Assembly: GCA_035559275.1 (NCBI GenBank)
Contig: DATMBN010000048.1
Location: 998 to 64,997, forward strand
From: Burkholderiaceae bacterium
GTDB lineage: Bacteria; Pseudomonadota; Gammaproteobacteria; Burkholderiales; Burkholderiaceae_C
DNA length: 64,000 bases
Direction: 5' to 3'
The translations under genes were made by a program, and so were the position numbers. Of the stretch, positions 3,660 to 4,691 are shown piece after piece (position 1 is the stretch's first letter; each line of letters begins with the position of its first letter). The notes below the pieces were generated by a model. The model was not told where the DNA came from and did not search any database. It was given only the letters and a program-made list of their open reading frames with translations.

Positions 3660-4691
3660 TCATGACACCCCTTGCGCCCACCGCAGCAACGTGGCCACCG
3701 GCGCGTACAGCGAACGGGGAATCTGCTGGTCCTCGGCGACCTCCTCGTACAGGCGCTCGGCCAGGGCCGGATCGGTCTCCATCGGCACCAGCACCTCCTT
3801 TGCCGCGCGGCGGATCTGCTCGGCCACGGCGCCCTCGCCCTTGGCAATCACCCGCGGCAGGTCGTGCTCGCCCAGGTACTGCAGCGCGACGGCCACGCGC
3901 GGCGAATGGATCACGGCCGAGGCGGCCCGCACGCGGTCCTGCAAGGCGAAGTACACCGTCTCGAAGTGCGCCTGACGGCGCCGCGACTGGTTGACCGGAT
4001 CGCCCTCGACCTCCTTGTGCTCGCGGCGCAGTTCCTCGATCGACATGCGCTGCTGCTTCATGAACTCGTAGTGCTCGTGCGCGTAGTCGACCATCGCCAT
4101 CAGCGCATAGATCACCGCGGCCCAGGCGAAGGTGACCATCATCGTGCGAGCCCCCACCGTCATCGCGGCCGCGGGGGATCCGTAGCCCAGGCGCAAGGCG
4201 GTGTCGAGGAAACCGCGGACGACCGCGAAGAGGAGCACGGCGATCAGCACCGTCTTGGCGCTCATCTTGAGCAGGTTCACCAGGTTGCGCGTGGAGAAGA
4301 TGCGTTGGAAGCCCTCGGCGGGATTGAGCCGGTTGATGTCGGGCTTGATCCTGGTCCAGGCCGCGACGCCGCCCACCTGGAAGAAGGAACCGACGATGCC
4401 CGCGACCGCGGCGATCGCGGCCAGGGCCACGACGCTCCAGGCCAGCACCTCGCCCGCGTGCAGCAGCAGCTCGAGGAAGCGGTCGTCCGGGCGGGTCAGC
4501 AGCGTGCGGCTGGTCGCGTGCAGCCACAGCTCGCGCACCATGCCAAAGCCCACGTCGGTCAGTGCCCACAGCGCGACCAGCACGGCGACGAACACGACGG
4601 TCGACGAGACGTCGCTGCTGAACACGACTTCGCCCTTCTTGCGCGCGTCGCGCAGGCGTTTCGGGGTGGGCTTCTGGTCCTTCTCGGCCAT
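3660..4691 (-). CDS. sctU: T3SS export apparatus switch protein SctU (YscU/HrcU family), lacking the canonical NPTH motif
   Basis: MAEKDQKPTPKRLRDARKKGEV N-terminus, four TM segments, KMSIEELRREHKEVEGDP-type linker; VIHSPRVAVALQY replaces VVxNPTHxAVALxY. Confidence 0.95.
   Translation of the reverse strand: MAEKDQKPTPKRLRDARKKGEVVFSSDVSSTVVFVAVLVALWALTDVGFGMVRELWLHATSRTLLTRPDDRFLELLLHAGEVLAWSVVALAAIAAVAGIVGSFFQVGGVAAWTRIKPDINRLNPAEGFQRIFSTRNLVNLLKMSAKTVLIAVLLFAVVRGFLDTALRLGYGSPAAAMTVGARTMMVTFAWAAVIYALMAMVDYAHEHYEFMKQQRMSIEELRREHKEVEGDPVNQSRRRQAHFETVYFALQDRVRAASAVIHSPRVAVALQYLGEHDLPRVIAKGEGAVAEQIRRAAKEVLVPMETDPALAERLYEEVAEDQQIPRSLYAPVATLLRWAQGVS

Follow-up and report, generated by a model that had tools for sequence, protein, structure and literature searches.

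Clade-wide absence of the NPTH autocleavage motif from SctU in an injectisome family of the Burkholderia cepacia complex and Variovorax

Self-cleavage at an Asn-Pro-Thr-His (NPTH) loop is taught as a universal and defining property of the SctU/FlhB proteins. The SctU encoded in a stretch of 64,000 nucleotides from a Burkholderiaceae bacterium (GenBank assembly GCA_035559275.1, contig DATMBN010000048.1, positions 998 to 64,997; the whole stretch is referred to as the window and has a G+C content of 67%) carries no such loop, and its locus raises the question of what an SctU without the textbook catalytic site does in a secretion system of type III (T3SS). As set out below, the loss of NPTH is a conserved trait of a secretion-system family, of the B. 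cepacia complex / Variovorax type, and not a case of local decay.

The gene, sctU, lies at 3660..4691 on the minus strand and encodes a protein of 343 amino acids (aa) with a four-helix membrane domain and a cytoplasmic C-domain. Its reading frame is intact, and it is the last gene of a compact minus-strand injectisome operon. The protein belongs to the SctU/FlhB family by its Pfam match, by its membrane and C-domain fold, and by its position in a T3SS operon directly downstream of sctT. The match to PF01312 (Bac_export_2; FlhB/HrpN/YscU/SpaS) runs end to end (profile positions 2-334 of 335) and scores 293.9 bits against a cut-off of 24.4 (E 2.2e-87), while the best NCBIfam model, the SctU equivalog TIGR01404, gives 289.8 bits, which is under its cut-off of 358 because of the divergence of the family.

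In the loop, the codons cat tcg ccg cgc (3897..3908, minus strand) specify H262-S263-P264-R265, which replaces (T/V)-N-P-T-H and is one residue shorter. The immediate context is ...ASAVIH-S-P-R-VAVALQY (longer stretch, ...RVRAASAVIHSPRVAVALQYLGEHD...), with S263-P264-R265 in place of N-P-T-H and the flanking 'AVAL.Y' strand retained. Upon HMMER alignment with solved FlhB chains, S263 pairs with the catalytic Asn, P264 with the Pro and R265 with the His, leaving a one-residue gap at the Thr. The N-P-T-H loop with its catalytic Asn, by which an autocleaving switch protein is recognised, is therefore absent from the window SctU, and since the turn holds no Asn, succinimide self-cleavage as in YscU, EscU, SpaS and FlhB cannot occur. 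A PF01312 scan of the genome (3.87 Mb in 105 contigs) returned only one other homologue, the flagellar FlhB, with a canonical NPTH (...VVMNPTHYAVALKY); for its hook-to-filament switch the organism thus retains the canonical form. The same scan, with sctU and the flagellar flhB as its only matches, ruled out a separate SctU_CC-like gene that would supply a 'pre-cleaved' C-fragment.

The absence of the motif extends well beyond this genome. Among the 120 closest homologs retrieved from a collection of 5.8 billion proteins (61-100% identity), Asn-Pro was found in none of the 113 readable motifs, the remaining seven not fitting the search pattern, and the loops read IHS[P/A/Q]R[V/T] and variants thereof. 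Among 1.84 billion cluster representatives, relatives down to about 38% identity were all without NPTH and had the shorter loop, whereas in the next tier NPTH or a close variant was present in almost all; the nearest NPTH-bearing relatives were metagenomic proteins. A scan of named genomes with an alignment of eight clade sequences located NPTH-less SctU in Variovorax (many), Rhizobacter, Methylibium, Pelomonas, Ideonella, Piscinibacter and Pandoraea, as well as in Cupriavidus sp. U2, Burkholderia sp. SRS-46 and B. dolosa. Species of the Ralstonia pickettii group have the trait too. Public Variovorax assemblies contain called homologous genes of 343 aa, and several named relatives, V. paradoxus NBRC 15149 and Rhizobacter Root1221 among them, share the IHSPRV string letter for letter; its recurrence in independent genomes rules out a sequencing error.

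In total 171 distinct clade sequences were compared, and the loop had the same length in every one of them, with no insertion or deletion. Asn was not found at position 263 in any of the 171, the residue being Ser in 152 (89%), Ala in 16 (9%) and Gly in 3 (2%), with at least 4-6 independent replacements of Ser in full-length proteins. The preceding His262 was present in 122 (71%) and replaced by Y, C, V, R or W in 29%; position 264 was occupied by Pro (53), Ala (53), Gln (23), Asn (12), Gly (10) and others, and position 265 mostly by Arg. The consensus of the clade is a three-residue turn, [H/Y]-S-x-[R/Q]. In a maximum likelihood tree of 92 rows, built on SctU as the sole protein and with the motif state mapped afterwards, the window SctU fell in a clade of 25 rows that received 100% SH-aLRT support and in which NP was missing from every row. 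A first-pass annotation of the sequence had reported HSPR for NPTH at 3897-3908, a shorter loop and an otherwise intact open reading frame, and the codons and the HMMER alignment bear it out in every detail. It had also held that orthologs retaining NPTH would point to strain-specific decay; in the alignment, NPTH was found in 0 of the 171 clade sequences.

Both the gene and the domain that follows the loop are under constraint. Between close pairs of Variovorax and Pelomonas sequences, omega (Nei-Gojobori) was about 0.05-0.15 over the whole of sctU and mostly about 0.03-0.15 in residues 263-343, which correspond to the canonical released C-terminal fragment; constraint on this part was equal to or above that on the membrane domain. 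The gene is thus under purifying selection, its C-terminal subdomain included. An AlphaFold2 model based on 69 clade sequences (mean pLDDT 81.5, C-domain above 90) places a strand at residues 259-262, a three-residue turn at S263-P264-R265 and a second strand at 266-271. The top Foldseek matches of the model were structures of uncleaved mutants: EscU N262D, N262A and P263A, YscU N263A and N263D, and mutants of Chlamydia CT091. For the C-domains of EscU and CT091 the best matches reached a TM-score of 0.92, with a root-mean-square deviation of 1.2-1.4 A over about 93 residues, and those of YscU 0.7-0.8. The C-domain is accordingly modelled in the usual fold, with a tighter turn that is predicted to differ from the canonical one by the removal of the nucleophile-bearing Asn. 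Selection on the C-domain together with this canonical model indicates that it presumably still has a structural role as part of a single polypeptide.

The phylogeny of SctU and the gene order place the cluster in the type known as the Burkholderia cepacia complex injectisome (BCI), or beta-Rhc system. BCI was named by Wallner et al. 2021, who reported it from almost the whole B. cepacia complex and, outside Burkholderia sensu lato, mainly from Variovorax, with a luxR-type regulator and without an identifiable sctF (PMC8565462); the group comprising Cupriavidus taiwanensis and B. cenocepacia has been called beta-Rhc by Gazi et al. 2012 (PMC3574062) and Tampakaki 2014 (PMC3973906). The window SctU groups with those of B. 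dolosa, Burkholderia sp. SRS-46 and Cupriavidus, and its cluster likewise has a LuxR-type regulator beside it and no recognisable sctF. The order V-S-C-D-J-K-L-N-T-U is common to Variovorax, Burkholderia sp. SRS-46 and Cupriavidus U2, and the small genes (the 67-aa gene described below, sctI and sctO) are found in most clade loci, not in all. Identity to the Burkholderia and Cupriavidus loci ranges from 41 to 70% in the core proteins and from 30 to 42% in SctK, SctD and SctO. In a Variovorax locus, according to public gene calls, the same 13 genes are present with no spare open reading frame, followed by AraC- and LuxR-type regulators. One difference concerns a gene of more than 10 kb for a LysM protein that in BCI lies between sctQ/R and the remaining operon, together with a lytic transglycosylase (PMC8565462): in the window sctQ/R lie next to sctV, and the large gene comes after sctU; in the part of its product that the contig covers, at least 1514 aa, no LysM domain was detected. 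With sctQ/R beside sctV and a large gene after sctU, the cluster was filed as a Variovorax-type arrangement variant of BCI. The second T3SS of Xylophilus (PMC13436205) was considered as the same system and rejected, being of the Hrp2 class, with sctP and a different gene order.

Mutant phenotypes indicate that the BCI family is functional. A bscN mutant of B. cenocepacia, described by Tomich and colleagues in 2003, is reportedly attenuated in mice. A B. vietnamiensis BCI mutant was found to be strongly impaired in the colonisation of rice (PMC8565462).

In canonical systems the T3S4 protein docks at the NPTH loop. In Xanthomonas it binds HpaC and the early substrate HrpB2, and the N264A exchange abolishes both cleavage and the secretion of late substrates (PMC3040844); in Salmonella, the cleavage of SpaS is constitutive and makes the protein competent for switching (PMC4620466). 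The window SctU resembles YscU, EscU, SpaS/Spa40, HrcU and FlhB in the full-length Pfam family, in the predicted C-domain fold (TM 0.92 to EscU_C), in the post-sctT position seen in many clusters, and in the retained 'AVAL.Y' strand and LA.RLY helix, but it differs from them in having no Asn-Pro, a turn shorter by one residue and no detected T3S4 partner. A search with the T3S4 model (Pfam Flg_hook), whose sensitivity in controls was about half, identified only the flagellar FliK in the window genome. In three other BCI-bearing genomes it likewise gave FliK-sized matches only, none of them inside a T3SS locus. Of four NPTH-bearing control systems, the model found the expected gene in two, immediately behind sctV in a Paraburkholderia Hrp2 cluster and, in Achromobacter, some 3 kb upstream of sctU, and missed it in Bordetella and Brenneria. 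A weak T3S4 match of 25 bits on contig 61 was discarded as a ruler, since it belongs to a DciA-family protein encoded beside sspB. Neither HrpJ/SctW nor T3SS_needle_F (PF09392) was matched in the genome, and neither model exceeded its cut-off in 14 control genomes either. These results are in line with a survey of 48 B. cenocepacia genomes, in which the clusters were without SctP, SctW, translocator or sctF genes (PMC12580581), and with Gazi et al., in whose Table 1 (PMC3574062) no Rhc subgroup has either SctP or SctW. With no SctP/T3S4, SctW or canonical needle gene detectable, there is most likely no classical early-to-late substrate switch.

We therefore consider it probable that the window SctU is a naturally uncleaved subunit of the export gate, in a machine that works without the classical T3S4-dependent switch. 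In an ancestor of the family, a three-residue turn would have taken the place of NPTH between strands one and two of the C-domain, after which SctU would be made and used as one uncleaved polypeptide whose C-domain still serves the export gate in a structural or docking role. T3S4 and NPTH, as the switching module, would have been lost as a unit, and the substrates would either form a single exported class or be ordered by other means, for instance at the level of transcription through the adjacent LuxR-type regulator. The first-pass annotation had raised the possibility of an injectisome working without the classical switch, and this fits well with the fixation of the NPTH loss in a selectively maintained family and with the failure to detect T3S4/SctP, SctW or a needle gene.

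Several points weigh against this reading. For any BCI-type SctU, both the uncleaved state in vivo and the absence of a switch are deductions from sequence. The cluster contains genes for an HrpB2-like rod and a possible pilin, and rod and pilin-type proteins are early substrates in other systems; the presence of such genes implies at least two classes of substrate and, with them, some ordering mechanism. The conservation of Ser263 above that of its neighbours (89%) is left unexplained by an uncleaved SctU. Finally, it was a single Pfam model, with two of the four controls detected, that gave no SctP/T3S4, and given this half-sensitivity a divergent ruler may be encoded elsewhere.

The same points bear on the alternative that survives best, in which the switch has been kept but rewired: SctU would be left uncleaved, or be cut in trans, and an unrecognised analogue of the ruler or gatekeeper would act on the S-x-R loop. 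The giant protein encoded downstream of sctU, the SctO-like protein or the product of an unlinked gene could be the partner. Early-type substrates do seem to be encoded (the HrpB2-like gene at 9418..9816 and the 67-aa gene at 9918..10121), known systems were missed by the T3S4 model in two of the four controls, and Ser263 and Arg265 are the better-conserved residues of the loop. A remodelled loop could dock another partner, as the Xanthomonas loop docks HpaC and HrpB2 (PMC3040844). However, no gene with detectable similarity to T3S4 or HrpJ was found, the core operon is compact and holds no unassigned gene, and the region downstream of sctU varies across the clade, so that we regard a rewired switch, with any of these partners, as unlikely.

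A second alternative keeps self-cleavage and changes its chemistry: Ser263 would attack the His262-Ser263 bond by an N-O acyl shift, of the type described for SEA, GAIN/GPS and Nup98. Where Asn once stood, most clade sequences have Ser (152/171), which is usually preceded by His (122/171) and sits in a tight beta-turn. Self-processing families, however, keep their nucleophile invariant, and no invariant nucleophile at the scissile bond is found in the clade SctU: Ala (16/171) and Gly (3/171) replace Ser in full-length proteins, through at least 4-6 independent events, His262 is exchanged in 29%, and residue 264 is unconstrained. In addition, the rhizobial SctUs that lack NPTH carry YRGT or GEER, in which Ser is absent. 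The replacement of Ser263 by Ala or Gly, together with the freedom of the next residue, makes Ser-based cleavage very improbable. Of the two interpretations put forward in the first-pass annotation, the one without a classical switch thus fits the evidence, and the N-O acyl shift at Ser is not supported, as Ser263 is conserved at 89% only, with at least four replacements, and is followed by P, A, Q, N or G. A sequencing error or a T3SS degenerating in one strain can be dismissed, as the clade-wide conservation refutes it, with IHSPRV in independent genomes, 13 intact core sct genes, omega far below 1 and conserved synteny.

Natural loss of NPTH is not restricted to this clade. The Rhc-I RhcU (Y4yO) of pNGR234a is naturally without the motif (LVYRGTAVLIGLRY), as is the Rhc-II-type SctU of S. 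fredii SMH12 (LLIGEERAVSVGIRY). The Rhc-III SctU of R. etli (L091, Rhizobium etli 8C-3 plasmid pRsp8C3b, 1129..1926) is annotated with 266 aa and ends just past the linker, so that the whole cytoplasmic C-domain is missing and not NPTH alone. NPTH is kept in the SctU of a Bradyrhizobium plasmid and in that of Paraburkholderia Hrp2. The alpha-rhizobial Rhc systems thus resemble the window system in the natural loss of NPTH and in having no SctP or SctW listed (PMC3574062), but differ from it in the secretin, which is split in Rhc (RhcC1/RhcC2) and is one 572-aa gene in the window, and in the sequence of the loop. In the SctU tree, Rhc-I and Rhc-II are placed apart from the BCI clade; BCI and Rhc as one group were not clearly rejected (approximately unbiased test, AU p 0.063, delta lnL 33.5), and a single ancestral loss of NPTH in the two is possible on these sequences.

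At least five changes of motif state are forced by well-supported branches of the SctU tree, over which other small NPTH-less lineages are scattered. Full-length metagenomic SctU/FlhB proteins without Asn-Pro include P0157, P0222, P0231, P0268 and a clade of P0239, P0246, P0248 and P0260, with loops such as VHLAD, TAFE, VDGER, TAPS, AGGRA and others that are likewise scattered over the tree. Many other SctU/FlhB homologues carry variants of the motif, NPT[E/R/Q] or NP[E/I/V/S/N/A]H. The scattered distribution of the metagenomic NPTH-less proteins suggests repeated loss. It can be proposed, tentatively and with more doubt than confidence, that NPTH loop, T3S4 ruler and gatekeeper make up a single unit which injectisomes can do without and have lost more than once; on the SctU tree, five or more losses of Asn-Pro are required, those in the BCI family and in the rhizobial Rhc systems among them. 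In that case the BCI machines would be natural 'cleavage-free' working injectisomes. If this were true, they would reveal what role SctU_C has outside switching, in systems whose function is backed by a rice phenotype and, reportedly, a mouse phenotype in Burkholderia.

In the full-text literature searched, which left most subscription journals aside, the natural absence of NPTH is not mentioned; only an engineered deletion in Xanthomonas turned up. The word NPTH does not occur in the BCI/beta-Rhc papers PMC8565462, PMC3574062 and PMC3973906. The protein family is a known one in a named injectisome type, and the family-wide loss of its textbook catalytic site appears to have passed unremarked. 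Databases automatically label SctU/FlhB proteins as 'switch protein', a function that should not be inferred from the family name alone. The cleavage site has gone from a whole family of injectisomes, with the domain under selection, in organisms that include plant-associated Variovorax, Cupriavidus symbionts and the B. cepacia complex. The family offers a natural control for the question of whether cleavage is needed for secretion as such or just for T3S4-dependent switching. With neither a needle gene nor known effectors, BCI injectisomes may export a single class of substrate.

As to the remainder of the cluster, none of the 13 core sct genes is missing, and their reading frames are intact. 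On the minus strand, the operon reads sctV, sctS, sctC, sctD, a 67-aa gene, candidate sctI, sctJ, sctK, sctL, sctN, the gene in SctO position, sctT and sctU. The first of these, sctV (13386..15461), was identified by TIGR01399 (731.2 bits against a cut-off of 692). It is followed by sctS (13112..13378, 88 aa), with a PF01313 match of 75.3 bits at G000:C48:14145-14360, which is window 13148-13363. The secretin gene sctC (11397..13115) is single and unsplit and encodes 572 aa with a signal-peptide-like N-terminus (TIGR02516, 427.4 bits); its listed open reading frame runs into sctS, the true start being at 13115. The gene sctD lies at 10265..11392 (TIGR02500, 95.8 bits, cut-off 86).

Between sctD and the HrpB2-like gene, at 9918..10121 on the same strand, lies a conserved small gene encoding an Ala/Ser-rich protein of 67 aa. 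Counterparts share 68-84% identity with it in loci of Variovorax, Methylibium and Ideonella and in two metagenome-assembled genomes, and 45% in Piscinibacter; in public Variovorax assemblies it has been called as a 68-aa gene. Its product had no match in Pfam and may, judging by its place, be a candidate for a pilus or needle subunit in a family said to be without sctF. The adjoining gene (9418..9816, minus strand) encodes 132 aa ending in FSTLLKNQQ, with a weak full-length match to HrpB2 (E 0.042), and its position is conserved in most clade loci; the protein is probably an inner-rod/SctI homologue.

Further along the minus strand, sctJ (8606..9406) encodes the lipoprotein of the inner-membrane ring (TIGR02544, 229.9 bits), sctK (7917..8594) a protein of about 225 aa with a match to Pfam YscK (29.7 bits, cut-off 22), sctL (7315..7935) the 206-aa stator (TIGR02499, 110.8 bits, cut-off 78.7) and sctN (5999..7318) the ATPase (TIGR02546, 609.3 bits, cut-off 604.75). 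The next gene (5507..5983) is a candidate for SctO (HrpB7/YscO) by its position between sctN and sctT and by composition; its 158-aa coiled-coil product had no match in Pfam, showed 34-50% identity in most clade loci and was not found in three others although the genes on either side are there. The gene sctT (4711..5493, minus strand) encodes 260 aa from the start MSGPIEL (TIGR01401, 188.6 bits, cut-off 163), and the Variovorax gene also has 260 aa. An open reading frame for sctT extending to 5805 was regarded as spurious, as the N-terminal stretch that it adds, Arg-rich and about 104 aa long, is read in a different frame from the SctO-like gene with which it overlaps.

Divergent from sctV, after a gap of 167 bp, sctQ and sctR are encoded on the plus strand. 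The sctQ gene (15629..16756; TIGR02551, 140.3 bits) has an uncertain start, and sctR (16762..17415, 217 aa) was assigned, with no family scan, by its position and its membrane-protein sequence; a 73% tblastn match to it adjoins sctQ in one clade locus (L027). The gene that follows sctR, at 17474..18406 on the minus strand, encodes a LuxR-family regulator with an autoinducer-binding domain (PF03472 and PF00196), and its presence at the cluster suggests a quorum-type control.

At the other end of the cluster, directly downstream of sctU on the minus strand, an open reading frame runs to the contig end (3..3545 in the window; L095 1..4542) and encodes a giant proline-tract and coiled-coil protein of at least 1514 aa. 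Residues 13-37 (window 3435..3509) are 25 consecutive prolines; the long middle part is charged and resembles a coiled coil, DUF4781 is matched with 72 bits, and hydrophobic segments lie close to the C-terminus. The protein could be a candidate secreted substrate or translocator; in other BCI loci it had only patchy matches of 30-43%. Conservation across the clade does not extend past sctU, where the Variovorax loci hold instead a LuxR-type and two AraC-type regulators.

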